Shown here: positions 1 through 45,255 of the stretch, piece after piece
How positions within the stretch are numbered: the first letter of the stretch is position 1
Layout of the letters: every line of letters begins with the position of its first letter
Virus record (IMG/VR): IMGVR_UViG_3300033420_000010
Location: 1 to 45,901 of that record
From: a virus
Lineage: Duplodnaviria; Caudoviricetes
DNA: 45,901 nt
Strand: one strand, 5' to 3'
The notes under the pieces: generated by a model
The model's database searches: none
What the model saw: the letters and a program-made list of their open reading frames with translations, nothing else
Told to the model about the DNA's origin: nothing
Translations under genes and position numbers: made by a program

Positions 1-83
1 GGTACATGCTACCAGTTGCCTGATAGTAGAGGTGAAGAACTCTCTATGGTCTGAACCTGAGTGTCCTCTCAGGCGTTGTTAGA
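1..83 (-). ncRNA. Partial TnpB omegaRNA scaffold of tnpB copy 1; right end lies outside the window
   Basis: 81/83 nt identical to 38281-38363, the region between the tnpB copy 2 stop codon and its right-end hairpin. Confidence 0.75.
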
Positions 84-1301
84 TTAGCCAGCTACGACGG
101 CTACTTCGCCGTGATGTGACTTCGAGACTGGCAGTGTAGCGTAGAGCTCCATAGCCTTATTCTCGATGTTGGCTGCTGCGTTAAGGTCTCTGTCATGTGT
201 GTTGCCACAGAACGGACAGTCCCAGGTGCGCTCAGATAGTGAGAGCTTCCTCTCAAGCTGCTTACCTGTTAGTGAACAGATATGGCTGCTTGGGAAGAAG
301 CGACTCATATAGATGAGGGTAGCATGTTGGGATTCCACCACCTTGTACTGTAACTTAGTGAAGAACGAAGACCAGGCTGCGTCTTGTATAGCTTTACTGA
401 GCTTGCGGTTACGTATCATGTTGGCGACAGCGAGGGCTTCTACACCGATTACGTGGCTATTGTTAACCAGTGTACGAGTTGCCTTGTGTTGCCAGTCATG
501 ACGGGCGTTGGTGACCTTTTGGTGTAGCTTGGCTACTTTGATGCGTGCTTTAGTGCGGTTCTTGCTTCCTTTGGTTTTACGGGAGAGGGATTGTTGGTGA
601 CGCTTAAGGGATTTAAGGTGGTTTTGGAGCCACCGTGGATTCTCTAGTTTGTCACCTGTGGAGAGAGTTGCATAGGTTTTAAGGCCTAGGTCTATACCTA
701 CGTTGGTTTGACCAATGGTCTTTTGAGGTGTGTAATCACACATGAAGGAAACATAGTACTCATTACTTGCATTCTTAGTAATGGTAATGGAGTTAGGCTC
801 ATTTGGCAACTCTCTGCTCCAGATGACTTTGAGAGGAGTATCGAGCTTAGCAATAAAGAGCTCTTTACCCTTAAGGCGAAAACCAACACTAGTTAAACGA
901 AAGCTTTGATAGTAAGAACGTTTCTTAAACTTAGGTCTGCCAACTCTGTTGTGGAGTTTATGGCCTCTGTAGAAGTTAGCATAAGCTCTACCAAGATTTA
1001 TGGCGGTCTGTTGGAATGCCACATTAGAGTAGAGATTCATCCAAGGGTGAGTCTCTTTGAGTAGTGTTATTTTTTTACATAAACCATAACCTGAGGTATT
1101 TGGAAACTCTATTTCCTCACGTGGGTTTTGCCCCTTTTTTAACTTATAAATTTCATAAGCCTCGTTGCTCTCTTTTAAAAGTTGATTCCAGAGAAATCGG
1201 TTAGCACCGAAGACTTCGGTTAAAAACTGCTTTTGAGTGTCTGTTGGGTAGATGCGGTATTTGTAACCCTTAACGAAGGGCTTTTTAGGAGACTGTTCCA
1301 T
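84..1301 (-). CDS. tnpB: TnpB RNA-guided endonuclease (IS200/IS605 family), copy 1
   Basis: N-terminal YKYRIYPT..Q..FL...FG..RFLWN; RuvC motifs GIDLG, GVEAL, HDRDLNAAANI; CPFCG zinc ribbon. Confidence 0.95.
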   Translation of the reverse strand: MEQSPKKPFVKGYKYRIYPTDTQKQFLTEVFGANRFLWNQLLKESNEAYEIYKLKKGQNPREEIEFPNTSGYGLCKKITLLKETHPWMNLYSNVAFQQTAINLGRAYANFYRGHKLHNRVGRPKFKKRSYYQSFRLTSVGFRLKGKELFIAKLDTPLKVIWSRELPNEPNSITITKNASNEYYVSFMCDYTPQKTIGQTNVGIDLGLKTYATLSTGDKLENPRWLQNHLKSLKRHQQSLSRKTKGSKNRTKARIKVAKLHQKVTNARHDWQHKATRTLVNNSHVIGVEALAVANMIRNRKLSKAIQDAAWSSFFTKLQYKVVESQHATLIYMSRFFPSSHICSLTGKQLERKLSLSERTWDCPFCGNTHDRDLNAAANIENKAMELYATLPVSKSHHGEVAVVAG

Positions 1302-1325
1302 GATGTAACCCTTTCATTTAAGTTG

Positions 1326-1392
1326 TGTTAATCATAAACCCATTTAATTACAGTGACAATTAGAAATATATTGAATGGGTTTATGATTAACA
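1326..1392. repeat. 19-bp perfect inverted repeat between the divergent tnpB and amidase genes
   Basis: tgttaatcataaacccatt (1326-1344) / aatgggtttatgattaaca (1374-1392). Confidence 0.85.
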
Positions 1393-1449
1393 GCGGTCTA
1401 AACTCCAAGGTTTACGTATATGCATTTTTAGTTAACGAAGGAGTTTTAA

Positions 1450-1993: not shown

Positions 1994-2025
1994 TAAAGAC
2001 ATAGGAGATTTCTCCTATGTCTTTA
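1994..2025. terminator. Bidirectional hairpin terminator
   Basis: 15-bp inverted repeat taaagacataggaga/tctcctatgtcttta between convergent genes. Confidence 0.75.
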
Positions 2026-3360
2026 TTTATATTTAGCTAAATTCTTAATAATTAGAGTTTCAAACTCTTCCTTAGAGAGTTCTTTTAATTGTTTATAGTT
2101 AAACTCTAGGTATCTGTACTTAAAATACTTAGCGTTGTATCGTACCGCATCATCACGATTCTTTTGTACTAATAAATCATCTTCACCATTTCTATGAAAA
2201 TGTGGTATATATTCATAGTGTTGTTTACCGTGAAACTCTATCAACAAGTTGTGATCTGGTAAATAAAAGTCATAAAAAAGAATGTTATAAATTTCTGGTA
2301 TACGATATTCTTGTATATGTCGTATGTTGTGTTTATCTAGTATAGCTTTGATAGCTAATTCACCTTTAGATGCATTACAGATTGGACAACCTTTACCACT
2401 ATGATGGTTAGCTGGTGTTTGTTCAAACTCACCATGCATAGGGCAAACTATAACAACTTTAGTATGATTGTTAATATACACAACTTTATTATAATCATAT
2501 TTGTTACCATGAATAGCTCTAGCTTTTTTTAAAAATTTTTTTAAATTAGATCTACGGTCTAATGACATTTTATCAAAATTACATTTAGAACAGCTGTTAC
2601 CTTTTAAATGTGATTCCGGTATTTGATTAAACTCACCATGTATAGGGCATATAATAGTTACCTTTTTACGAATGCCTGTATAAATAACTTTGCTGTAGTC
2701 GTATTTATCACCGTGGATAAGTCTTGCTTTTCTAATGAATTCTTCTTTTGTTGACATCCTTAACAATCTTCTATTTTCCAATCCACATTTTAGACAACCA
2801 GACCCCCATATATGAGCTACAGGTGTTTGTTCAAACTCACCGTGTTTTTTACAAACTATAATTATTTTTTCAGTGGAATTTATATACTCAACTTTACTGT
2901 AATCGTATTTATCACCGTGGATAAGTCTTGCCTTAGATATGAATTCGGCATTATTATATTTAAATCTTAATCCTGTTTTTTCAGCACCACAATAAGGACA
3001 ACCATGATCTTGTAAATGATTATTAGGTGTTTGCTCAAATTCACCATGGATAGGACATATAATAATAAGTTTAGTTGTGCTGTTAACATACTCCACTTTA
3101 CTGTAGTCGTATTTATAACCATGGATAGCTCTAGCTTTTCTAATGAATTCTTCTTTTGTTAAAGGTACATTTCTATAACATTTAGGGCATCTTTGTCCTT
3201 TTAAATGATTATGTGGTGTTTGCTCAAAGTCCCCGTGAATAGGACATATAATAGTTACATTAGTTTTACTATTGACGTAATTTACTTTATCATAGAGATA
3301 GTTGTTTTTATGTACTTTAAAAGCTTTTTCTATAAATTGTTTAATTGTATTTTTAAACAT
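2023..3360 (-). CDS. Homing-endonuclease-like protein: five ~68-aa zinc-ribbon repeats (DUF723-like) plus a C-terminal PD-(D/E)XK/Vsr-like nuclease
   Basis: Five F..KA..IHG.KYDYSKV.Y....K..I.C..HGEF.Q.P..H....C..C units, then SKGE...YDFYLPDHNLLIEFHGKQHY. Confidence 0.8.
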   Translation of the reverse strand: MFKNTIKQFIEKAFKVHKNNYLYDKVNYVNSKTNVTIICPIHGDFEQTPHNHLKGQRCPKCYRNVPLTKEEFIRKARAIHGYKYDYSKVEYVNSTTKLIIICPIHGEFEQTPNNHLQDHGCPYCGAEKTGLRFKYNNAEFISKARLIHGDKYDYSKVEYINSTEKIIIVCKKHGEFEQTPVAHIWGSGCLKCGLENRRLLRMSTKEEFIRKARLIHGDKYDYSKVIYTGIRKKVTIICPIHGEFNQIPESHLKGNSCSKCNFDKMSLDRRSNLKKFLKKARAIHGNKYDYNKVVYINNHTKVVIVCPMHGEFEQTPANHHSGKGCPICNASKGELAIKAILDKHNIRHIQEYRIPEIYNILFYDFYLPDHNLLIEFHGKQHYEYIPHFHRNGEDDLLVQKNRDDAVRYNAKYFKYRYLEFNYKQLKELSKEEFETLIIKNLAKYK

Positions 3361-5569: not shown

Positions 5570-8500
5570 TTAGATTCTAGACATAACATAGAGATATAGA
5601 TCTGCTACTTCTTTACGCAGAGCATCGATTTGTTCGTTAACAAATGTGATTGTAGCTGCATCAATGAGACCCATATCAGCAACAGTGTTAGGATTAGTAC
5701 CAAGAGTTACACGACCCTTAGGATCAACAGTTACACGAGTGTAAGCACCAGCAACAACACCAGTATCATTTAGAGTTGCAACCAGATCAACACCAGCGCC
5801 ACCGTTGAAATTAACTGCAGGAGCAGTCATATCACCAGAGACACTAAAGTTACGACCAGTAGCTAAGGTAGTAGCAGTATCAGCATTACCAGCTAAAGCA
5901 GCAGTGATAACGTTAGCAGAGAAATTACCGCTTGTATCACGTGCAACAATTGCGCTAGCAGTGTTAGCAGAAGTAGCATTTGAAGTAACAGTGATGTTAC
6001 CTGTTGCTGCGCCGTTACCATTAGCGACAGTGATACCTACACCACTTGTAACGATTTCCTTAGTGGACATGTTATTGGCGTTGTCACGAACGACAATACC
6101 AAACGTGGATACACCAGACAAGCTAGTGAGATTAGCGTTAAGTAGCTGACCGTCAGCAATACCATAACCAGCAAGAGTGGTTGGGTTACTACCAGCAGTT
6201 GCGCGACCATAAGAGTCAACAGCAAGCTTAGTGTAAGTACCAGCGACAACACCTGTAGTTGCTAGATCAATAGCGTCAGAATTAACGACGATACGAGTAG
6301 AAGAAACAGTAGTAACTGCAAGAGTATTACCAGTTAAAGTCATACCATCGCCAGCGATGATGTTACCTTGACCAGAGAACTGATTAATATAGATAGGATC
6401 TGTACCAATAGCAAAAGTCATTGGAACGTCTACACCCATTACCCAACCTGTTCCCTTGAGTGTGGAACCGTCGTAGACATAGAAGTAGCTACCAGGAACT
6501 TCTGAAGATTCATCAATGGTAGAGACACGCTTAAGAATGAAAGGTGTTCCAGCATTACCAACTTGTTGAACGACATAGTCACCGTTCTCAGCTTTATTAG
6601 TTTGGTCTTTCAGTAGAACGCGATCACCTACGTTAGCAAGCATACCGTCAACTGATAGAGAACCATTGTTAGTGCCTGTCAGTGTAGAGTTAACACCAGA
6701 TACACCGTTAAAATAAGTACCAGTATAGTTCACTGTAGAAGCTAAGCGTACTTGTGGTTTAGTAACCAAACCTTGTGCTACTGCGTCAACATACTGTTTA
6801 GTTGTTGGATGCATAGCTTGCAGAGGATCTGCGTGCAGAACCAAATAACCGGTCATAGTGTCACCGGCTTTAGATACCTTCAATGAATCCTGAACGTCGA
6901 CATAGTTCTTTGTTGTTGGATCAGTGTTCAAAATACCAACAGTGCCTTGTAAGGTAGTGATTTGACCTTGTAGAACAGTGTCTTTACCATCAAGATAAGT
7001 TGTTAGGCTAACAATGCCATCATCAACATAACCCTTAGTAGCGGCATGTAGTGTAGCAGTTGGTGCGGCATTCAGGGTCAAGAACCCAGTCATGATATCA
7101 CCAGCTTTATCAACCTTCAGAGCCAGACCAGTTGTAGATGCAGAGTTAGCTGCAGTCACACTTGATTCAACAAACTGCTTGGTAGCTGCGCCAAGAGCAA
7201 CAACTGGATCAGCGTTAAGGATTAGAGCACCAGTCATGGTGTCGCCAGCCTTAGACACTTTCAGTGCGTCTTGAGCTTCAGTAAACTGCTTGGTAGCAGG
7301 TTGCATAGCTGCGATAGGATCAGCGCTGAGTGTAACAACACCAGTTAATGTCCCACCAGAGAGATTAAGTTTACTATCAAGTTGCACCTGAACCTCAGAT
7401 GTAACACCTGCTAGTTGGTTAACTTCAGTAGAAGTAACAGTCACTGCATCAAGGAAAGTATTTTGAGCGACTGTCATGTGAACAGCAGCGTCACTAACGT
7501 GATTAAACAAGTTAGTATCTGAATACTGCTTAGTAACAGCACCTAGTAATGCTGTTGGATCAGCATTCAAAATGAGTGCACCAGTCATGGTGTCACCAGT
7601 TTTAGCTACTTTTGCGGCATCGTTAGAGTCAACGTAGTACTTAGTTGCAGCGTCTAAATTAGCTACTGGATCACCGCTCAGCACCAAAGTGCCAGTCATT
7701 GTTCCACCAGCTAGAGCAACCTTACTGTTAAGCTGAGTTTGAACAGCGGCAGTTGTACCAGCAAGATAATTTGCTTCAATAGAAGAAATAGTGATTCCAT
7801 CTAGGAACGTATTTTGAGCAGGTGTAACGTGCAGTGAAGCGTCTGCTGCGTGTGTAGACAGATTTGTATCTGAGTATTGCTTAGTCACAGCGTGCATGAT
7901 AGAAGTAGGATCAGCACTCAGGGTCAAGAACCCAGTCATGGTATCACCAGCTTTATCAACCTTCAGTGCCAAACCAGTTGTAGACGCAGAGTTAGCTGCA
8001 GTCACACTTGATTCAACAAACTGTTTAGTAGCAGCACCAAGAGCAACAGTTGGGTCAGCGTTAAGAATCAGAGCACCAGTCATGGTGTCACCGGCTTTAG
8101 CGACTTTTAGTGCATCTTGCGCGCTAACTGTTGTAGCCAACGTAGAAATACTGGTATCAACAAACTGCTTAGTAGCTGCGCCAAGAGCAACAACTGGATC
8201 AGCGTTAAGAACTAGAGCACCCGTCATGGTGTCACCAGCTTTAGCAACTTTCAGTGCATCTTGTGCATCAATATAAGTCTTTGTAGCAGGATCTGCATTC
8301 AAGACAGAAACAGTGTTTTGTAGAGTAGTTACTTGACCTTGTAATACAACGTCAGCAGCATCTACATAACTCTTATTAGCAACGTCTGTACCAACAACTG
8401 GTGTATCCGTAACTTTAAGTTTAGCACTAGCTGCAAATGTTACACTAGCTGAAACAGTGCTGTCAATAGTTTTAGAAACACGATCAGCAATATCAGCAAT

Positions 8501-10537
8501 AACAGTAGGAGCAACAGCAATACCTGAGGCTTCTTTAACAAGAGTAGCATCTTTAAGTTGAACTGAAAGTTCAGCTGCATCAGTTGTGTTAGCTGTGACA
8601 CCATCGAGTGTAAAGAACAGACCAGCAGCGGAGTTAAGGTTAACAGCGATAGGTGCATTAGCACTTGAGCCATCAATCTCTAAACCCTTACCAAGCTTAG
8701 CACTTAAGATGCTGCCATCTAGAGAAACACCAGAACCAGGTACTAGGTTAACAGAAGTGTTGGTTGGAACCCAAACAAGTTCATCGGTATAGGTAAATGA
8801 AATACCAAAATTATGAGAATCTTGATCAAATACTAAAGTAGTTGATCCAGGAGTTAAAACTGAGTTAGTATAAGTAATAGCACCAGGTGTAGCTGATACA
8901 ATAGTTACGATCTTATCATTGTGAGCAGTTAAAGTAGCACCGACAACGGTATCAGTGTAAATACCAACACCAAAGCGATCTCCAGCAGCTACAGCACGTG
9001 ACTGTAAGAATACCCAAGAAGTTCCATCAAAGAACGTAGCATAACCAGCTTTACCAGCCCAAGCACCAGTAGGAGCTGCACCAACAATATACACGTCGTA
9101 ATTGACAGGAGAAGCTGGTGGTGTAGATAGTGAATCATCAACTAGATTAACATCTGTAACTGGATCTTTCCAGTCTAGACCATTAGCAATAGAATCAACA
9201 TAAGCTTTGTTGACAACTTCAGTTGAGCTAGCAGGAACTTTATCAACAAAAATTGTTTTACCAGCTGACAGTGATACGTCACCAGTGATAGTGCCACCTA
9301 CTTTATCAAACTTGGTATCAATTTGAGTTTGTACTGATGATGTAACACCAGCTAGACGATTAACTTCAGCAGAAGTAACAGTCACTGCATCAAGGAAAGT
9401 ATTTTGACCAGCAGTTAAGTGTAGTGCTTCGTCTGAGGTATGAGCTAATAGGTTAGTATCAACGTAACCTTTAGTTGCGGCACCAAGTGTAGCAACTGGA
9501 TCAGCGTTAAGAACTAGAGCACCAGTCATGGTGTCGCCAGCTTTAGCTACCTTAAATGCATCTTGTGCTTCAACAAACTGTTTAGTGGCAGCACCAAGAG
9601 CGGCAACTGGATCAGCGTTAAGAACCAAAGCACCAGTCATGGTGTCACCAGCCTTATTAACCTTCAGTGCTAGACCAGTTGTAGATGCAGTATTAGCCGC
9701 AGTAACACTTGATTCAACAAACTGTTTAGTAGCTGCGCCAAGAGCAACAACTGGATCAGCGTTAAGAACCAGAGCACCAGTCATGGTGTCACCGGCTTTA
9801 TCAACCTTCAGTGCCAGACCAGTTGTAGATGCAGAGTTAGCTGCAGTCACACTTGATTCAACAAACTGCTTGGTAGCTGCGCCAAGAGCAACGACTGGAT
9901 CAGCGTTAAGAACCAAAGCACCCGTCATGGTGTCACCAGACTTAGCTACTTTGCTATTAATTTGTGTCTGAATAGCAGAACTAACACCGACAAGATAATT
10001 AACTTCTGTTGATGTAGCATTAACCGCATCAAGGAAAGTATTTTGTTCTGATGTCATATGTAGTTCAACATTGCTTGTGTGAGCAAGCAAATTAGAATCA
10101 ACATACTGTTTGGTAGCTGCGCCAAGAGCTACAGCTGGATCAGCATGAAGCACCAAAGCACCAGTCATGGTGTCGCCAGACTTAGATACTTTCAGAGCAT
10201 CTCGTGTATCGACATAAGACTTAGTAGCAGCTTCTAAAGCGTTAATTGGATCAGCATTCAGGGTTAAGAACCCAGTCATCAAACCACCAGCTAAACTAAG
10301 TTTAGTACCGAATTGTGCTTGAATGTTTGATGTAATACCACTGAGAGAATTAACTTCTGTAGATGTAACTGTAAGAGCGTCTAAAAACGTATCTTGAGCA
10401 GGTGTTAAGTGTAAGCTAGAGTTACCAGCGTGTAGTCCATTGTGATAATCAACATAGTTCTTAGTCGCTGCTTCCATTGAGTTAACTGGATCGCGCGACA
10501 GTGTGACTGGCATATTGCCGTAAATGTTAAGCTTCAT
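5570..10537 (-). CDS. Long tail fibre protein (1655 aa) with many internal repeats
   Basis: More than a dozen KV.K.GDTMTG.L.L.ADP...L.AATKQ repeats; five H......LH.T..Q..FLD units; GDRVLLKDQT...ENG.Y domain; TGV.AG.YT...VD..GR.T fibre motifs. Confidence 0.85.
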   Translation of the reverse strand: MKLNIYGNMPVTLSRDPVNSMEAATKNYVDYHNGLHAGNSSLHLTPAQDTFLDALTVTSTEVNSLSGITSNIQAQFGTKLSLAGGLMTGFLTLNADPINALEAATKSYVDTRDALKVSKSGDTMTGALVLHADPAVALGAATKQYVDSNLLAHTSNVELHMTSEQNTFLDAVNATSTEVNYLVGVSSAIQTQINSKVAKSGDTMTGALVLNADPVVALGAATKQFVESSVTAANSASTTGLALKVDKAGDTMTGALVLNADPVVALGAATKQFVESSVTAANTASTTGLALKVNKAGDTMTGALVLNADPVAALGAATKQFVEAQDAFKVAKAGDTMTGALVLNADPVATLGAATKGYVDTNLLAHTSDEALHLTAGQNTFLDAVTVTSAEVNRLAGVTSSVQTQIDTKFDKVGGTITGDVSLSAGKTIFVDKVPASSTEVVNKAYVDSIANGLDWKDPVTDVNLVDDSLSTPPASPVNYDVYIVGAAPTGAWAGKAGYATFFDGTSWVFLQSRAVAAGDRFGVGIYTDTVVGATLTAHNDKIVTIVSATPGAITYTNSVLTPGSTTLVFDQDSHNFGISFTYTDELVWVPTNTSVNLVPGSGVSLDGSILSAKLGKGLEIDGSSANAPIAVNLNSAAGLFFTLDGVTANTTDAAELSVQLKDATLVKEASGIAVAPTVIADIADRVSKTIDSTVSASVTFAASAKLKVTDTPVVGTDVANKSYVDAADVVLQGQVTTLQNTVSVLNADPATKTYIDAQDALKVAKAGDTMTGALVLNADPVVALGAATKQFVDTSISTLATTVSAQDALKVAKAGDTMTGALILNADPTVALGAATKQFVESSVTAANSASTTGLALKVDKAGDTMTGFLTLSADPTSIMHAVTKQYSDTNLSTHAADASLHVTPAQNTFLDGITISSIEANYLAGTTAAVQTQLNSKVALAGGTMTGTLVLSGDPVANLDAATKYYVDSNDAAKVAKTGDTMTGALILNADPTALLGAVTKQYSDTNLFNHVSDAAVHMTVAQNTFLDAVTVTSTEVNQLAGVTSEVQVQLDSKLNLSGGTLTGVVTLSADPIAAMQPATKQFTEAQDALKVSKAGDTMTGALILNADPVVALGAATKQFVESSVTAANSASTTGLALKVDKAGDIMTGFLTLNAAPTATLHAATKGYVDDGIVSLTTYLDGKDTVLQGQITTLQGTVGILNTDPTTKNYVDVQDSLKVSKAGDTMTGYLVLHADPLQAMHPTTKQYVDAVAQGLVTKPQVRLASTVNYTGTYFNGVSGVNSTLTGTNNGSLSVDGMLANVGDRVLLKDQTNKAENGDYVVQQVGNAGTPFILKRVSTIDESSEVPGSYFYVYDGSTLKGTGWVMGVDVPMTFAIGTDPIYINQFSGQGNIIAGDGMTLTGNTLAVTTVSSTRIVVNSDAIDLATTGVVAGTYTKLAVDSYGRATAGSNPTTLAGYGIADGQLLNANLTSLSGVSTFGIVVRDNANNMSTKEIVTSGVGITVANGNGAATGNITVTSNATSANTASAIVARDTSGNFSANVITAALAGNADTATTLATGRNFSVSGDMTAPAVNFNGGAGVDLVATLNDTGVVAGAYTRVTVDPKGRVTLGTNPNTVADMGLIDAATITFVNEQIDALRKEVADLYLYVMSRI

Positions 10538-16135: not shown

Positions 16136-19100
16136 TTAGTATTTGATGTAGCTGTAGGAGTTTGAGTAGAGGGCGTCATCTACTGTGGTGTCAGGCAGAT
16201 CAAACACATTACTTGGAGTTGGTGTGTATGAGCCATCATAGTAGGGTGAGTAGTCATTTAGACCACCAGTGATAGGTGCGTTATAGGTCACAGAGGAGTA
16301 GGCGTTACTGATAACACCACCTAATAGATGAACCTTGTTAGCGGTTACTATAGCTTGTGAGTCATAGATGGTTGCAGGTAGCGATGACTGTGTAGTCCAA
16401 GCACCAAGAGTACCATCGGCGTTAATAGGAGCCGTGTAGACAGCAGAAGATGCCACACCACCCACCTTACCACCAAAGAGATACACTCTCTTCTTAGAGA
16501 CCATCACTTGAGCGTTAGAGATAGCCACAGGAAGAGATGCAGCAGCAGACCATGCACCCAGTGTACCATCAGTGTTAATAAAAGCAGTATGTACAGCAGC
16601 TGAAGGGTTACCACTGATGATACCACCAGCTACATAGACACGGTTACTTGTCACCACCAGAGCAGCAGCAGAAGTAGCCACAGGAAGTGATGTAGCAGTA
16701 GACCAAGCAGCCAGAGTACCATCACTGTTAACAGTAGCAGCATACACCGCTGAGGTATCAACTCCACCTAAAGTGTAGAGCTTGTTAGTAGTAAGAACAG
16801 CTTGCTCTTGAGCTATAGCACTAGGCAAGTCGCCTACGATGTTAGCGATGCCACCATCGATGTTAAAGTTCAGTGAACATGAACCACCAGAGGCCACTGA
16901 GTAAGTAGCGTTAACACTGCTGGTACCAGGCAATGCTGCTGTCTGTGTAGACTGAGCAGCCTCTCCACCGTAGCCACCAGCAAAGGTATAAGTCTGACCA
17001 TTCATAGTAAGAGTGGTTGCAGCACCTGTGGTATAAGTGTTATAAGCAGCCACGTAAGCCTGACCAGCGTTATACACAGGTAGACCGCTAGGGTAACTTG
17101 CGTTACCAGTAGGAGCTATATAAGGCTTGCCAGCGTTATAAACAGGTAATCCACTAGGATAGCTTGCATTACCTTGTTGAGGTATATTTATAGCTGCAAC
17201 ATTGTAGCTAGCAGTAACTGCTGATGAATTAACGTATGTAGGACTAACCTTAGTAGTTAAAGTAATATACTTTGTTGTCGTTGTGGCTGGACCATTAACA
17301 CCACCAGGGAAAGTATATGTAGTTCCAAGCATCGTAAGTGTGGAATTTGCACCAGTTTTTTCTATAGTTGGTACGTTAAAAACTCCCCAATTAAAAACAT
17401 AAACTCCAGTATTATTAGTTAATAAAAACACTGAGGCGGCCATAGACGTAGCCTTTAAATTACTAACTGGTAAATCAGAAACACCCTGATAACCATACTC
17501 AAGTGTCCATATGTGTTTTTTATTATAGGTGTATGCTATCCAAGACGTAACAGTAGCATGACTAGAAGATAAACCAATGTAAACATTTCCGGCTGGGTAA
17601 GTGTATATTAAATCACCTTGATCATTATAAAGTTTACCATCAGAGGTTAATCTGTAATGACCAGAACCATTAGGACCAGGAGTGACCGCCACATAGTTAC
17701 TATTAGCTATTTTAGGCATATATACACTATAGGTACCATATAAATAAATGTTGCCTGTATTAGTTAATGCCGCTGGGGAACCACCCGACGATCCTATTTG
17801 TACATAAGTATGCCCGGCTGGAAAATTAAAAGCAAAATTACCATCACTGCCATAAACTTTACCATTAGAAGCTAAAAAACTACCAGTTGTTGCTGACACA
17901 ATACTAACAGGAGCAACACCGTCTTCTCCTTTCATACTTACAGTTAATGTTGTAGCTCTACCACTTGGATTTAAGTTAGATAAAGTACCTGATCCTGTAT
18001 TTATACTTCCTGATACAGCTGCGTAATAAACACCTTCCACATAGACCGGCAGTCCACTAGGATAGCTTGCGTTACCAGTAGGAGCTATATAAGCTTGACC
18101 TGCGTTATACACTGGCAGTCCACTAGGATAGCTTGCGTTACCAGTAGGAGCTACATAAGGAACTTCTGGATGGTAGGTTGTTGTACCAGTGCCACCTTTA
18201 CCAGTGATAGCTACACTGATAACACCAGAAGGTATCGTCATGGTACCACTACCACTTAAGGCACTAGTTTGCAACTGTTTGGTGTTAGCCCATGCACCTA
18301 GTGTGCCATCAGAGTTAACAGCGGCTGTAAGCACGGATGCTAGCTTAACACCAGAGGCGTCATAGCCACCCAATAGAAATACACGGTTCTTGGTCACAAC
18401 AGCACGACTACCAGAGACAGCTAATGGCAGCGCACTAGACGTACTCCATGCACCTAAAGTACTATCTGAGTTAATAGGCGCTGTATACACAGCAGAGGAT
18501 GTGGCTCCAGCAGCAGTTTTACCACCGATTAAATACACACGGTTCTTAGTCACAACAGCGTGTGAGCTTGCCAGTGTCACTGGTAGAGCCACACCTGTCC
18601 CCCATCCCACAATATCAGCACTTTGAGTCTGATTGATGTAATACTGTTCTTGCCAAGGTGTGCCGTTATTAGGACTTAAGTAATCCGTGAAGGTGTCACT
18701 GAGCACACTGTAAAGAGCCATGTAAGTAGACTTACTGACAGTGGCACCATTACACTTTAGAAAACCAGCTGGAGTGGCACTATAAGGTTTACGGATGATG
18801 TCACCTACCACAAGACCAGTGGTAGCTCCAACAGCCATATCCACGTAACTCTTAGTAGCTATATGCATAGGCTCATAAGGGTTAGCGTTCACCGTTAAGA
18901 AACCACTCATTACACCACCACTAACAGCAACAGCATCACCCACCCCATAACCACTCAAAGTTGTAGGTTTACCACTACTGATCTTACTCCAATCTAGAGA
19001 TGGAATATCATCTCCTAACAAAGAAGCTGAGCCAGTTACACGACCTTTTTCATTGACATTTATTTTACTATAAGTTCCAGCACCAATACCTGTATTATTT

Positions 19101-19351
19101 AAATACAACTCACCGCTTTGAGCAACATTACTGACATCACCAGTAAATACTGGCAATCTTCCAACAGGAATCATACCTGAAACTAAATTGTTCGCATCAA
19201 TATGGTTAACAGAATCATCTATGTATTGTTTAGTAGAAGCTTCTAGTGGATTAACTGGATTGTTTGCTAAAATCAAAGACCCTATTACCAAACCAGAGGT
19301 TAAATCAAAACCATCCGTAATATCAGGATACCTATTAACATTAATTCTCAT
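16136..19351 (-). CDS. Tail fibre/receptor-binding protein with split tail-collar domain and Kelch-like repeats
   Basis: Fibre N-terminus; collar motif GD......TPAGFLKCNG..VSK.TY..LY and C-terminal F.LPD...YIKY; six KNRVY..GG......VY.A.IN.DG.LG.W repeats. Confidence 0.8.
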   Translation of the reverse strand: MRINVNRYPDITDGFDLTSGLVIGSLILANNPVNPLEASTKQYIDDSVNHIDANNLVSGMIPVGRLPVFTGDVSNVAQSGELYLNNTGIGAGTYSKINVNEKGRVTGSASLLGDDIPSLDWSKISSGKPTTLSGYGVGDAVAVSGGVMSGFLTVNANPYEPMHIATKSYVDMAVGATTGLVVGDIIRKPYSATPAGFLKCNGATVSKSTYMALYSVLSDTFTDYLSPNNGTPWQEQYYINQTQSADIVGWGTGVALPVTLASSHAVVTKNRVYLIGGKTAAGATSSAVYTAPINSDSTLGAWSTSSALPLAVSGSRAVVTKNRVFLLGGYDASGVKLASVLTAAVNSDGTLGAWANTKQLQTSALSGSGTMTIPSGVISVAITGKGGTGTTTYHPEVPYVAPTGNASYPSGLPVYNAGQAYIAPTGNASYPSGLPVYVEGVYYAAVSGSINTGSGTLSNLNPSGRATTLTVSMKGEDGVAPVSIVSATTGSFLASNGKVYGSDGNFAFNFPAGHTYVQIGSSGGSPAALTNTGNIYLYGTYSVYMPKIANSNYVAVTPGPNGSGHYRLTSDGKLYNDQGDLIYTYPAGNVYIGLSSSHATVTSWIAYTYNKKHIWTLEYGYQGVSDLPVSNLKATSMAASVFLLTNNTGVYVFNWGVFNVPTIEKTGANSTLTMLGTTYTFPGGVNGPATTTTKYITLTTKVSPTYVNSSAVTASYNVAAINIPQQGNASYPSGLPVYNAGKPYIAPTGNASYPSGLPVYNAGQAYVAAYNTYTTGAATTLTMNGQTYTFAGGYGGEAAQSTQTAALPGTSSVNATYSVASGGSCSLNFNIDGGIANIVGDLPSAIAQEQAVLTTNKLYTLGGVDTSAVYAATVNSDGTLAAWSTATSLPVATSAAALVVTSNRVYVAGGIISGNPSAAVHTAFINTDGTLGAWSAAASLPVAISNAQVMVSKKRVYLFGGKVGGVASSAVYTAPINADGTLGAWTTQSSLPATIYDSQAIVTANKVHLLGGVISNAYSSVTYNAPITGGLNDYSPYYDGSYTPTPSNVFDLPDTTVDDALYSNSYSYIKY

Positions 19352-19402
19352 ACTAAACTCCTTAGATAAAAGTTAAAAACCGAAAAGCTATCAAAGGATA
19401 AA
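19348..19402 (-). repeat. 55-bp leader/RBS repeat, copy A (inverted relative to 44443-44497)
   Basis: Reverse complement is identical to 44443-44497. Confidence 0.95.
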
Positions 19403-23493: not shown

Positions 23494-24420
23494 TTATTTT
23501 TCCTTTAAAATGTTAAAAAGTATTTTTTCGATTGTATTATCATTCATTTGCTTATAATTAAATTCAACTAATTTTATTTTAAGTTCTTTAGCTAATTCTC
23601 TTTTAAACATATCTCTTTCCCTCTGTACTGATAAACTATCATCACCACCAAAAAACTTTATAGATTCATAATGTTGTCTACCATGAAACTCTATCAGCAA
23701 GTTGTAATCTGGTAAGTAAAAATCATACCTAAATTTATAAATTTGATCTGGTATAGTGTATTCTCTTTTATAAATGATATTAAATTTATCTAATATGGAT
23801 GTTATATATTTTTCACCTTTAGAGTCACTACACCTAGCGCAACCGTGATTATACATATGATCATTAGCCGTTTGCCAAAATTCACCATGTATAGGACAAA
23901 TAATACAGACTTTAGTTTGTGAATTTACATATACTGATTTACTGTAATCATATTTGTCACCATGTATAGCTTTAGCTCTAGATATAAATTTTTCTGTATT
24001 TAATAGTCTATAAAACCTTTGCTTTTCGTTTCTACATTTAACACAACCTTGACCATTTAAATGGTTAGATGCGGTCTGTTCAAACTCACCATGGATAGGG
24101 CATATAATAATAACTTTATTAAGGGCTCCAGTGTATACCACTTTACTGTAGTCGTACCTGTTTCCATGAACTTTTCTTGCTTTTTCTATAAAAATATTTA
24201 AGTTATGTTTAAATAAAATACTTAATTTTTCATAAATACACACCTTACAACCTTGACCATTTAAATGATGATTAGGTTTTTGTTCAAACTCACCATGGAT
24301 AGGACAGATGATAATGACTTTAGTAGCGTTGTTAATATACACCACTTTACTGTAATCATATCTATCGCCATGTATAGCTCTAGCTTTTTTTATGAACTCT
24401 TCTTTGGTTAGTAATTTCAT
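23494..24420 (-). CDS. Homing-endonuclease-like protein: three zinc-ribbon repeats plus a PD-(D/E)XK/Vsr-like nuclease
   Basis: Three CPIHGEF.Q....H....C..C repeats; SKGE...RYDFYLPDYNLLIEFHGRQHY; paralog of 2023-3360. Confidence 0.8.
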   Translation of the reverse strand: MKLLTKEEFIKKARAIHGDRYDYSKVVYINNATKVIIICPIHGEFEQKPNHHLNGQGCKVCIYEKLSILFKHNLNIFIEKARKVHGNRYDYSKVVYTGALNKVIIICPIHGEFEQTASNHLNGQGCVKCRNEKQRFYRLLNTEKFISRAKAIHGDKYDYSKSVYVNSQTKVCIICPIHGEFWQTANDHMYNHGCARCSDSKGEKYITSILDKFNIIYKREYTIPDQIYKFRYDFYLPDYNLLIEFHGRQHYESIKFFGGDDSLSVQRERDMFKRELAKELKIKLVEFNYKQMNDNTIEKILFNILKEK

Positions 24421-29167: not shown

Positions 29168-29207
29168 TTGACATCCTCCCCGGCCTTCAGGCCGGGGAGG
29201 ATGTCAA
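29168..29207. mobile_element. Orphan palindrome made of two back-to-back IS200/IS605 right-end tips
   Basis: ttgacatcctccccggcc-ttca-ggccggggaggatgtcaa; the last 30 nt equal the reverse complement of 38213-38242. Confidence 0.8.
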
Positions 29208-38027: not shown

Positions 38028-38212
38028 GTAGGCATCCTTTTTTAGTACTCAAAGCATCTTGGAAAAAAGAAAAAAGAAAAAGGTATTAACCAGTTTCTTT
38101 CACATTCCTCTAAATACCTCAATCTTCACTACATCTCTTACACAAAGGTGAAGAATTTGTTGGATTGATTTCGATTTCTGACTCATCATACCAGTTCTTC
38201 CTAACGGTATTA

Positions 38213-38363
38213 TTGACATCCTCCCCGGCCTGAAGGCCGGGGATTCCTAAGGTTACCCTTAAGAGTTACCACTTCAAAGAGGTACATGCTACCAGTTGCC
38301 TGATAGTAGAGGTAAAGAACTCTCCATGGTCTGAACCTGAGTGTCCTCTCAGGCGTTGTTAGA
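38213..38363 (-). ncRNA. TnpB omegaRNA (reRNA) scaffold; guide predicted to continue into the flank TAATACCGTTAGGAAG
   Basis: Structured 150 nt between stop codon and TCAA end; internal TTGA could pair with terminal TCAA; conserved in copy 1; 5' boundary uncertain. Confidence 0.8.
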
Positions 38364-39596
38364 TTAGCCAGCTACAACGGCTACTTCGCCGTGGTGTGAC
38401 TTCGAGGCTGGCAGTGTAGCGTAGAGCTCCATAGCCTTATTCTCGATGTTAGCAGCTGCGTTTAGGTCTCTGTCGTGTGTGTTGCCACAGAACGGACACT
38501 CCCAAGTGCGCTCAGATAGTGAGAGCTTCCTCTCAAGCTGCTTACCTGTTAAGGAACAAATGTGGCTGCTTGGGTAGAAGGTGCTCATATAGATGAGGGT
38601 AGCATGTTGGGATTCCACCACCTTGTACTGAAGCTTTTGGAAGAACGAAGACCAGGCTGCGTCTTGTATAGCTTTACTGAGCTTGCGGTTACGTATCATG
38701 TTGGCAACAGCTAGGGCTTCTACACCGATGACGTGGCTATTGTTAACCAGTGTACGAGTTGCCTTGTGTTGCCAGTCATGACGGGCGTTGGTGACCTTTT
38801 GGTGTAGCTTAGCTACTTTGATTCTGGCTTTAGTGCGGTTCTTACTTCCTTTGGTTTTCCTTGAGAGGGATTGTTGGTGACGCTTAAGGGATTTAAGGTG
38901 GTTTTGAAGCCACCTGGGGTTCTCTAGTTTGTCACCTGTAGACAGAGTTGCATAGGTTTTGATGCCTAGGTCGATACCTACGTTGGTCTCACCGGCAGTC
39001 TTTTGAAGAGTGTACTCACAGGTGAAGGAGACGTAGTATTCCCCTGATGGTGTCTTGGAGATAGCTAGTGATGTAGGGTAGCTTGGCAACTCTCTGGACC
39101 AGATGACTTTAAGGGGAGTATCTAGCTTAGCGATATAGAGCTCTTTACCCTTAAGACGAAAGCCATTTCCCATCAGGTTAAACGACTGGCGCTCTACTTT
39201 CTTCTTGAAGGTTGGCTTAGAGAAACGGCCTTTACGCACACTCTTGAGTGACTTGAAGTAGCGGTCATAGGCACCACCTAAGTGTATAAGAGTTTGCTGT
39301 AGAGCCACAGCTGATGTTTCTTGGAGCCAAGCAGTCTCTGGGTTATTACGGTGTATGGCTACCCTACAAGAGAGTGCGTTAGAAGAGAGGTTAGGTTCTT
39401 TGATGGTATCAGTGATTGTGCCATTTTCTTTGGCAAAAACGTAGGCTTGATGTTCCCTTTGGGTGTCTGCCAGGACTTTGTTATAGAGGAAGCGACAAGC
39501 ACCGAAGGTTTTAGCTAAGAAGTGCTTTTGCTCGTCTGTAGGATAGATGCGGTATTTGTAACCCTTAACGAAGGGCTTTTTAGGAGACTGTTCCAT
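38364..39596 (-). CDS. tnpB: TnpB RNA-guided endonuclease, copy 2
   Basis: YKYRIYPTDEQ...FGACRFLYN; RuvC GIDLG / GVEAL / DRDLNAA intact. Confidence 0.95.
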   Translation of the reverse strand: MEQSPKKPFVKGYKYRIYPTDEQKHFLAKTFGACRFLYNKVLADTQREHQAYVFAKENGTITDTIKEPNLSSNALSCRVAIHRNNPETAWLQETSAVALQQTLIHLGGAYDRYFKSLKSVRKGRFSKPTFKKKVERQSFNLMGNGFRLKGKELYIAKLDTPLKVIWSRELPSYPTSLAISKTPSGEYYVSFTCEYTLQKTAGETNVGIDLGIKTYATLSTGDKLENPRWLQNHLKSLKRHQQSLSRKTKGSKNRTKARIKVAKLHQKVTNARHDWQHKATRTLVNNSHVIGVEALAVANMIRNRKLSKAIQDAAWSSFFQKLQYKVVESQHATLIYMSTFYPSSHICSLTGKQLERKLSLSERTWECPFCGNTHDRDLNAAANIENKAMELYATLPASKSHHGEVAVVAG

Positions 39597-39772
39597 GTTG
39601 TAACCCTTTCATTAAGTTGTGTTGTTAATGAGACTTTATGTAACCATAGTATTTACGTTTCATCCCCGGCCTGAAGACCGGGGCCTTCACTAACCTTTAG
39701 GTAACATTTCAATCTCCTATTAACAAACACTGCTTACTATCAACCGATAGCAAGAACAAACAGTATCCGTTT

Positions 39773-39790
39773 ACAATTAGTATATATGTA
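39773..39790 (-). promoter_or_regulatory. Putative phage promoter TACATATATA-N5-TGT reading into the IS
   Basis: Exact motif match; followed by AGGAG and an ATG at 39707. Confidence 0.65.
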
Positions 39791-39815
39791 ACCATAAAAA
39801 ATTTCAATGTCAAAT

Positions 39816-40259
39816 TTAGGAAACCTGTAAGTTTATAGAATAAGCTGCGTCTTTGAACATGTAGTCATCTATCATAACGTTTCTTCTATTCCAAGGAGAG
39901 ATGTCTTTATTAAAGGCTGAACGAGCAAACATACCCTTCATATTTGTAACCATAGAAACATTCCACTTAGATAAATCTCTATTAAAAAGACTACCATAGA
40001 ACATATACATCATGTTAGTGACTCGGCAAACATTCCAATTCGATATATCCCTATTAAATTCACTACAAACAAACATAGCTGACATATCTCTAACCTTAGA
40101 GACATTCCATTCAGAGATGTCTCCATTGAACTTAGACTTTTTAAAAAGATAAGACATATCTGTTATAACGCTAACATCAAGATGGTTTAGGTTAGCATAT
40201 ATGTCAGATGCGGCTATAATGTCGCTTAACTCTTTCTTGTTCTTTACCAAGTATCTCAT
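39816..40259 (-). CDS. DUF285/BspA-like repeat protein
   Basis: Repeated FN.DIS.WNVS.V..M..MF units. Confidence 0.85.
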   Translation of the reverse strand: MRYLVKNKKELSDIIAASDIYANLNHLDVSVITDMSYLFKKSKFNGDISEWNVSKVRDMSAMFVCSEFNRDISNWNVCRVTNMMYMFYGSLFNRDLSKWNVSMVTNMKGMFARSAFNKDISPWNRRNVMIDDYMFKDAAYSINLQVS

Positions 40260-44442: not shown

Positions 44443-44497
44443 TTTATCCTTTGATAGCTTTTCGGTTTTTAACTTTTATCTAAGGAGTTTAGTATGA
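44443..44497 (+). repeat. 55-bp leader/RBS repeat, copy B
   Basis: Identical to the reverse complement of 19348-19402. Confidence 0.95.
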
Positions 44498-45255
44498 AGA
44501 TTAAGTCTTTTAATGACGGTGGATATATCACTGGTGGGTTTACTTCAAGCGGGTTAATGTTAACTGGTCCCCTTTTTGTAACTAATGCCTTTTCTGATCC
44601 ACTTGAAGTTGTTAATAAACAGTATACTGATGGTAAGATGACATCATTAAATGCTGAGAATCTTAATAGTGGTACTATTGGAGCAGAGAGGCTGCCTTCT
44701 TTTTCTGGAGATTTCACTAAAGCAGCTGGTAGCAATGTTATTAGTCTAGTGGCAACTGGTGTATCACCAGGTGCACATAGTAAAGTAACAGTGGATGCAA
44801 AAGGTCGTGTAACTGAAGCTTCTGCTTTAGCTCAAACAGATATTCCATTTTTAAATTGGAATAAAATAACAACTAGTAAACCAACAACTTTAAGTGGATA
44901 TGGTATCAGTGATGGTGTTAATGTTAGTGGTGGAACATTAGTAGGATTTTTAACTTTAAGTGGTGATCCAACTGCAGCTTATCAAGCAGCCACAAAACGC
45001 TATGCTGATGAAACTATTCGTGTTAAAGCTGGACTATATACCGGAGACGTTGTCGTAAAACCTACAGCCGTCACTCCAGCTGGTTTTCTAAAGTGTAATG
45101 GTGCTTTCTTAAACAAAACTACTTATAATAAACTTTTCTCTGTTATAGGTAATAGTTTTGATGTCGGTAACCCTTCTCCTAGTACACAATTTATGTTACC
45201 TGATGCTACATCTAGAGATGCTCACACTAACATGTATCACTATATCAAGACTTAA
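44494..45255 (+). CDS. Short tail fibre / tail-collar protein, paralog of 16136-19351
   Basis: Same N-terminal fibre segment; uninterrupted collar TPAGFLKCNG...LFSVIG..F......F.LPD...YIK. Confidence 0.8.
   Translation: MKIKSFNDGGYITGGFTSSGLMLTGPLFVTNAFSDPLEVVNKQYTDGKMTSLNAENLNSGTIGAERLPSFSGDFTKAAGSNVISLVATGVSPGAHSKVTVDAKGRVTEASALAQTDIPFLNWNKITTSKPTTLSGYGISDGVNVSGGTLVGFLTLSGDPTAAYQAATKRYADETIRVKAGLYTGDVVVKPTAVTPAGFLKCNGAFLNKTTYNKLFSVIGNSFDVGNPSPSTQFMLPDATSRDAHTNMYHYIKT

Follow-up and report, generated by a model that had tools for sequence, protein, structure and literature searches.

TnpB nucleases cut the empty donor site of their element, and the TAM that they recognise must equal the insertion motif (PMC10055086, PMC13565253). 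The two are set by different molecules, the insertion motif by a DNA guide in the left end of the element and the TAM by residues of the REC and WED domains, and TnpB protects its element only if both agree. In a review, this matching is described as co-evolution, and its accessible parts give no route by which it could be switched (PMC13565253). In IS608, base pairing links the insertion motif, 19 bases upstream, to a tetranucleotide on the 5′ side of the left hairpin (PMC3201880). For TnpB of the IS200/IS605 element ISDra2 (PDB 8h1j), TAM contacts are described for Y52, S56, K76, F77, Q80, T123 and N124, the RNA is contacted by WED and RuvC, and the boundary of the REC and NUC lobes lies between the end of WED at residue 176 and the start of RuvC at 185 (PMC10097598). 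K76 contacts the -3 base, and its replacement by Ala, Cys or Ser shifts recognition toward, or allows, TTTAT (reviewed in PMC13639567). For one TldR, TAM reading has been placed in REC and WED (10.64898/2026.09.22.753285). TnpB also processes its own mRNA (PMC10278001); a term search of the accessible text of that paper found nothing on the loading of non-cognate RNA.

Two further systems are close in other respects. Geobacillus stearothermophilus harbors several co-resident tnpB elements without tnpA (ISGst1-5) and minimal palindromic elements (PATEs), and clade-specific TAMs co-vary with the left-end guides (PMC10055086). Natural swaps of the PAM-interacting domain of Cas9, in which the motif-reading module was replaced and the catalytic part kept, were found by conflicting domain trees (bioRxiv 10.1101/2021.05.01.442224); the terms “TnpB” and “Cas12” are absent from the text of this preprint. 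The literature searched, consisting of titles and opening lines of abstracts of mostly open-access papers, yielded no natural reader swap in TnpB.

Here, we describe two tnpB genes from a phage. The window, i.e. the whole stretch of DNA analysed, is an entire virus contig of 45.9 kb with a completeness of 23%. Its divergent family-B DNA polymerase has its top match in phage AgentSmith (53.6%), followed by large phages of 220-320 kb, and we take the phage to be a phiKZ-like jumbo phage. Probably, copy 1 is a recombinant which combines a REC that groups with a distant clade with a RuvC and scaffold matching those of copy 2, and which likely differs in its TAM, predicted as T-purine-A-pyrimidine and probably TAAC, from copy 2 with TTAC. 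That it represents a natural chimera within a known family, with the Cas9 reader swap as a known analogue, is well supported. In contrast to the Cas9 case, the protein is a TnpB, the exchanged module (REC/WED) is N-terminal, and it is linked to a transposon left end that must match the TAM. In contrast to ISGst1-5, for which the accessible parts of the paper (PMC10055086) describe no such arrangement, a recombinant REC is found on a shared RuvC and scaffold.

Both open reading frames were found on the minus strand where the initial annotation had located two TnpBs (Table 1). HTH_OrfB_IS605, OrfB_IS605 (RuvC) and Cas12f1-like_TNB (zinc ribbon) of Pfam match both copies above the cut-offs, and their RuvC D-E-D triads align to that of ISDra2. 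The model of copy 1 is a single TnpB fold (pLDDT 86.1), and its best Foldseek match is ISDra2 TnpB 8h1j with a TM of 0.76 (normalised to the query length). Judged from sequence, both are intact IS605-type TnpBs, for which TAM-dependent RNA-guided cleavage would be the family expectation. Y1 TnpA (PF01797) had no match in the window and three related virus contigs, all of them fragments, or in AgentSmith, and the copies are transposase-less IS605-type elements. A PF01797 match near L025, a tnpB copy on a fragment of a related phage, lies on a different contig of the bin and is unlinked to these elements. The contigs of the window's assembly contain seven distinct tnpB sites, which we infer to lie in one genome.

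With ISDra2-type elements, the two copies share the domain order, the catalytic triad and the predicted fold, as well as a right end in TCAA with a downstream guide and IS608-like hairpins and guide tetranucleotides at the left and right. They differ in that REC and RuvC of copy 1 are of different ancestry, in that copies with different predicted insertion motifs share one scaffold, and in their host, presumably a jumbo phage. In addition, the second Cys of the CCCC zinc finger is replaced by Thr in both copies, with the other three Cys and two His being invariant in 30 relatives. The 30 relatives also all have a His two positions ahead of the first Cys.

Table 1. Features of the two tnpB copies, their ends and their insertion motifs, in positions of the window.
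Feature	Position	Strand	Remarks
tnpB copy 1	84..1301	-	405 aa; A-type REC on shared RuvC; triad D204/E288/D372 intact
tnpB copy 2	38364..39596	-	410 aa; native B-type REC; triad D209/E293/D377 intact
Copy 1, codons 22-139	885..1238	-	REC and first WED strand; groups with outside TnpB clade
Copy 1, codons 161-185	747..821	-	Second divergent tract, common to L001 only; ends near REC/NUC lobe boundary
Copy 1, start-codon patch	1239..1329	-	21 codons plus about 28 leader bases; nearly the same in A- and B-type copies
Copy 1, omegaRNA scaffold, 5′ part	1..83	-	83 of about 151 bases on contig
Copy 1, decayed A-type left end	1391..1430	-	In register with the L001 and L025 left ends
Copy 1, broken subterminal hairpin	1391-1410	-	Not formed in fold
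Copy 1, guide tetranucleotide TAAA	1411-1414	-	Within decayed left end
Copy 1, candidate insertion motif TAAC	1431..1434	-	Putative; same motif at aligned place in L001, at another insertion site
Copy 1, AT-rich palindrome in leader	1326..1392	.	Missing from other copies
Copy 2, left end	39664..39700	-	Hairpin 39664-39683; guide AAGG 39684-39687; element boundary 39700
Copy 2, insertion motif and predicted TAM TTAC	39701..39704	-	Also at L003, at a different site
Copy 2, omegaRNA scaffold and right end	38213..38363	-	GAAT 38243-38246; hairpin 38223-38242; terminal TCAA 38213-38216
Copy 2, predicted 16-base guide	38197..38212	-	Flank downstream of TCAA; length by analogy with ISDra2 (PMC10097598)

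The division of the genes into alike and unlike parts agrees with the initial annotation. Amino acid identity between the copies is 100% over residues 1-21, 35% over 22-139, 75% over 140-200 and 97% over 201-405, and the previous count of 81 matches in 83 scaffold bases (1-83 versus 38281-38363) was obtained again. Homology detected by blastn covers 1-885/38281-39165 (89.8%) and 1190-1329/39485-39623 (86.4%), with nothing in between. The peptides quoted as examples of divergence, TSGYGLCKKIT/LSSNALSCRVA and RLTSVGF/NLMGNGF, are all present; the latter pair marks a WED strand that is indeed divergent but, other than described before, belongs to the margin of the divergent segment and is not separate from it. 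The second divergent tract (codons 161-185), with 61% nucleotide identity to copy 2, had been overlooked.

Among the five complete copies, copy 1 and L001 are united by 103 of the 118 informative sites in codons 22-139 and by all 16 in codons 161-185. P0003 has an A-type REC yet is B-like in codons 161-185. Codons 140-160 are mixed, with outgroup-like letters in L003 and L004 and a copy 2 that resembles the A-type. In RuvC, 26 informative sites show eight patterns and 205 of 325 site pairs are incompatible (five complete copies); this scrambled signal may partly result from assemblies threading a repeat. The identical first 21 codons appear to be a homogenised patch. We interpret the mosaic as the outcome of recurrent exchange between copies residing together, the crossovers falling in the stretch from the first WED strand to the RuvC start, close to the REC/NUC boundary.

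The guide and cleavage sequences of copy 2 pair as the IS605 rule expects, AAGG with TTAC on the left and GAAT with TCAA on the right. Its removal in silico at TTAC/TCAA restores a frame of 39 codons behind an AGGAG site, which supports the element boundary, and in sequencing run X2 three contigs track the left end to 39704, through TTAC, and diverge after it. All right ends seen terminate in TCAA, directly after which the copies diverge. Of the 48 pairs predicted for the omegaRNA, 16 show a compensatory change among seven sequences; a comparison of the scaffold with Rfam gave no match. Since the contig ends inside a repeat, 83 bases past the stop codon of copy 1, the right-end hairpin and guide of this copy lie off the contig, and its decayed left end suggests that transposition has been lost.

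The type of the left end tracks the type of REC in all six aligned ends. The motif predicted by the IS608 rule was found at 17 or 19 bases in six of eight left ends, namely TTAC at copy 2, L003 and L012, TTAT at L004 and at a mini-element in L014, and TGAT at L025, an A-type copy with an intact left end. The rule misses by one base at L001 (TAAC instead of the predicted TGnC) and at copy 1 (TAAC, at 20 bases, instead of the predicted TAnT); both exceptions are A-type ends, those of greatest weight for a changed motif. The second base of the motif is T in 5/5 B-type ends and a purine in 3/3 A-type ends; these sequences are related and not independent trials, so that the correlation between motif and residue has few independent points. 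At the base level, no empty site of copy 1 was found.

Several related structures were observed around these elements. A 40-base palindrome at 29168-29207 is built from a pair of right-end arms, both terminating in TCAA, around one hairpin, without a left end or open reading frame, and is a minimal palindromic relative of the elements. The mini-element of L014 (about 1191-1270, minus strand) has a single hairpin and no open reading frame, its L004-type left end, after TTAT, being fused to a right-end tail. At L014 445-790, a P-loop kinase-like frame that starts inside its Walker A motif directly adjoins the right end of the element, and the insertion appears to split a gene. The scaffold of the A-type L001 (4216-4392) is more divergent and carries a 27-base insertion, and an identical RNA is thus not common to every copy. 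With respect to copy 2, about 99 unseen letters replace the element in run X1 (38219-39701), the element is internally deleted in run X9 (38461-39526), and a related phage in run X7 is without the whole region (38075-39830).

Equivalents of the ISDra2 TAM contacts were assigned by sequence alignment. They are, in copy 1 and copy 2, respectively, G71/S72 for Y52, C75/S76 for S56, N93/A96 for K76, V94/V97 for F77, Q97/Q100 for Q80, and about T137-S138/M142-G143 for T123-N124, the last two positions being approximate because of a gap. Thus, five of the seven differ between the copies, and the equivalents of F77 (Val) and Q80 (Gln) are the same. The -3 base, contacted by K76 in ISDra2, is the base at which TAAC and TTAC differ. 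At the position of K76, all four A-type phage copies have Asn and the B-type copies Ala or Ser; the outside clade has Ser as well, which weakens a simple residue code. L004, which follows TTAT, differs from copy 2 at the positions of S56, T60 and K76.

Different histories of the gene parts are indicated by synonymous sites and by trees. The synonymous difference between the copies amounts to 0.16 in codons 1-21, 0.85 in 22-139, 0.53 in 140-200 and 0.22 in 201-405; it is hence not uniform along the gene, as the initial annotation would have expected without exchange, but saturated only in the middle. A change-point analysis on third positions of identical residues delimited codons 35-143, with 8 of 36 matching inside versus 219 of 261 outside, a result reached by none of 200 permutations. 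As a rate control, 703 pairs among 38 relatives were compared (seven locus proteins and the 31 homologues that exceed 370 aa, with three duplicates and as many short proteins removed). Where RuvC identity was at least 90%, pairs without an A-type member (n = 22) had REC identities of 75-96%, and A-by-B pairs (n = 9) of 33-36%. Separate trees of REC and RuvC, the check proposed initially, conflict. In the REC tree of the 38 relatives, copy 1, L001 and P0003 group with the outside proteins P0004, P0032, P0036 and P0037 (support 100/98), and copy 2, L003 and L004 with a resident clade (100/98). In the tree of RuvC, one clade (100/99) beside the resident clade comprises copies 1 and 2, L001, L003, L004 and P0003; the RuvC of the four outside proteins is just 53-56% identical to that of the window copies. 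Both forced cross-topologies were rejected by AU tests (p = 4.8e-4 and 7.6e-6, values which are optimistic since the groups were named once the trees had been inspected and the model is simple). A REC tree under a mixture model that included L025 gave the same grouping with a support of 98.

As the trees conflict and the REC of copy 2 lies in the resident clade, copy 2 represents the native arrangement and copy 1 is chimeric. The REC of copy 1 comes from a distant lineage by recombination, and the swap is not reciprocal. The initial claim that recombination exchanged the specificity module on a shared scaffold is supported by the synonymous divergence, the rate control, the conflicting trees with their AU tests and the unitigs bridging the junctions (see below), with two corrections: the module was not swapped between the two copies, and the exchanged block appears to include the left end and part of WED. 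Among outside proteins, the closest REC reaches just 47% identity to that of copy 1, which implies either an old event or a donor that is not among the sampled sequences.

Without recombination, a duplication within the phage would have been followed by fast divergence of REC, driven by diversifying selection; such a history is highly improbable. Within the family, REC does vary somewhat more than RuvC (median identity 84% where RuvC is at least 90% identical), but this does not account for synonymous sites that are saturated in REC and differ by 0.22 in RuvC, for a copy 1 REC that carries the two-residue gaps of the distant proteins with which it groups, or for the rejection of a single history. 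About equally improbable is an assembly artefact in which parts of two TnpB genes with no relation to each other were linked via a repeat. Such an artefact would fit the end of the contig inside a repeat and the many run letters that are unlike those of the window within 45-627. However, one unitig with zero differences spans 651-1268, i.e. codons 12-217 and thus beyond the first catalytic Asp, in four of four runs from three studies, and both junctions are bridged by unitigs of the copy 1 type and the L001 type in runs X1 and X2 (shorter side 48 letters, within a range of 40-61). Furthermore, the chimeric architecture recurs in L001/L002/L008, in P0003 and in L025. The differing letters in the repeat part of copy 1 (about 1-640) make its exact RuvC haplotype uncertain.

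Less easily dismissed, although still unlikely, is a real recombination without functional change. Both proteins would then have the same or a relaxed TAM, and copy 1 would be either an immobilised remnant or a gene kept by the phage, its mosaic being a by-product of gene conversion among repeats. The broken left-end hairpin of copy 1, the Val and Gln common to both copies at two contact positions, the single base that separates TAAC from TTAC, and the lack of a TnpA match in the window and the three related virus contigs would all be in keeping with this reading. On the other hand, the contact positions that differ include that of K76, which reads the differing base of the motif, and in a related phage, the left end of an A-type copy is intact and lies next to a TGAT that matches the rule. 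In addition, copy 1 and L001 differ in REC by a dN of 0.20 versus a dS of 1.58; the REC of copy 1 is therefore under purifying selection.

For a recombinant with a changed TAM, we propose the following history. Both copies would act, as known for the family, as RNA-guided homing nucleases that cleave their own insertion site in its empty form. In an older crossover 3′ of REC, an outside (A) 5′ block with left end and REC would have been joined to the RuvC, scaffold and right end of a resident (B) element, the left end and REC moving as one block; a donor origin of the left end is suggested by its co-variation with REC alone. Alternatively, a whole outside element could have entered and its 3′ half been overwritten, with the same product. 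Later exchange among co-resident copies may have kept the start-codon patch, RuvC and scaffold alike, with REC being spared from overwriting because it was too divergent. As RuvC and scaffold are shared, it is plausible from the sequences that the copies load each other's RNAs, though part of WED differs. Should the copies read different TAMs, a guide loaded onto the other protein would direct it to a site whose motif does not suit it, and would likely be unproductive.

The left-end guide and the TAM-reading residues of REC are part of one block, so that one crossover would be enough to alter insertion motif and TAM at once. We tentatively extend this to IS605 elements in general, a proposal that we rate as possible rather than probable: a crossover near the REC/NUC boundary would move left-end guide and REC onto a constant chassis of RuvC and omegaRNA, and TnpBs with TTAC, TTAT, TAAC and TGAT would form a natural panel sharing one scaffold in this group of jumbo phages. 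If true, it would explain how the target choice of the transposase and the TAM of the nuclease stay matched while both change, and the linked block would offer a one-step, testable route for switching. As natural chimeras with near-constant RuvC and scaffold, the copies also provide a ready set for studying whether REC is portable as a TAM module in compact genome editors.

Searches for the missing parts of this picture covered ends, donors and targets. The right end and guide of copy 1 were not found: a right-end pattern search of viruses returned five loci, all belonging to other copies, and the neighbouring peptidase as a query retrieved no virus contig. The equivalent site in AgentSmith, between gene 118 and a transglycosylase gene, has no annotated tnpB, and the gene that directly follows L005/L015 is located about 85 kb from it, which makes the L005/L015 locus an unlikely continuation. 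The transglycosylase gene is absent from the three related contigs, and its search gave one relative with 43% identity. For the outside clade, no left ends were obtained from a virus scan (known copies and one weak match), from a genome scan (35 loci, only L025 being of this group) or from a left-end pattern scan (five loci, one already known and four chance matches). A third homologue search gave no further A-type protein. Among the DNA compared, no credible second guide target was found; three 11-base seed matches did not extend. The contig of L025 carries a second, distant TnpB of about 40% identity (L075), which shows no right-end hairpin or TCAA within 300 bases 3′ of its stop codon and is possibly a non-mobile form kept by the phage.

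Beyond the tnpB genes, the window contains further repeated sequences. The genes at 2023-3360 and 23494-24420 are related to each other, carry tandem zinc-finger-like repeats (DUF4379, DUF723) and probably encode homing endonucleases; at the position of the former, AgentSmith has no gene between the orthologues 118 and 117. The tail-collar genes at 18744-19402 and 44443-45104 have about 660 bases in common with 66% identity, in inverted orientation. Finally, the gene at 5570-10537 contains many internal repeats.
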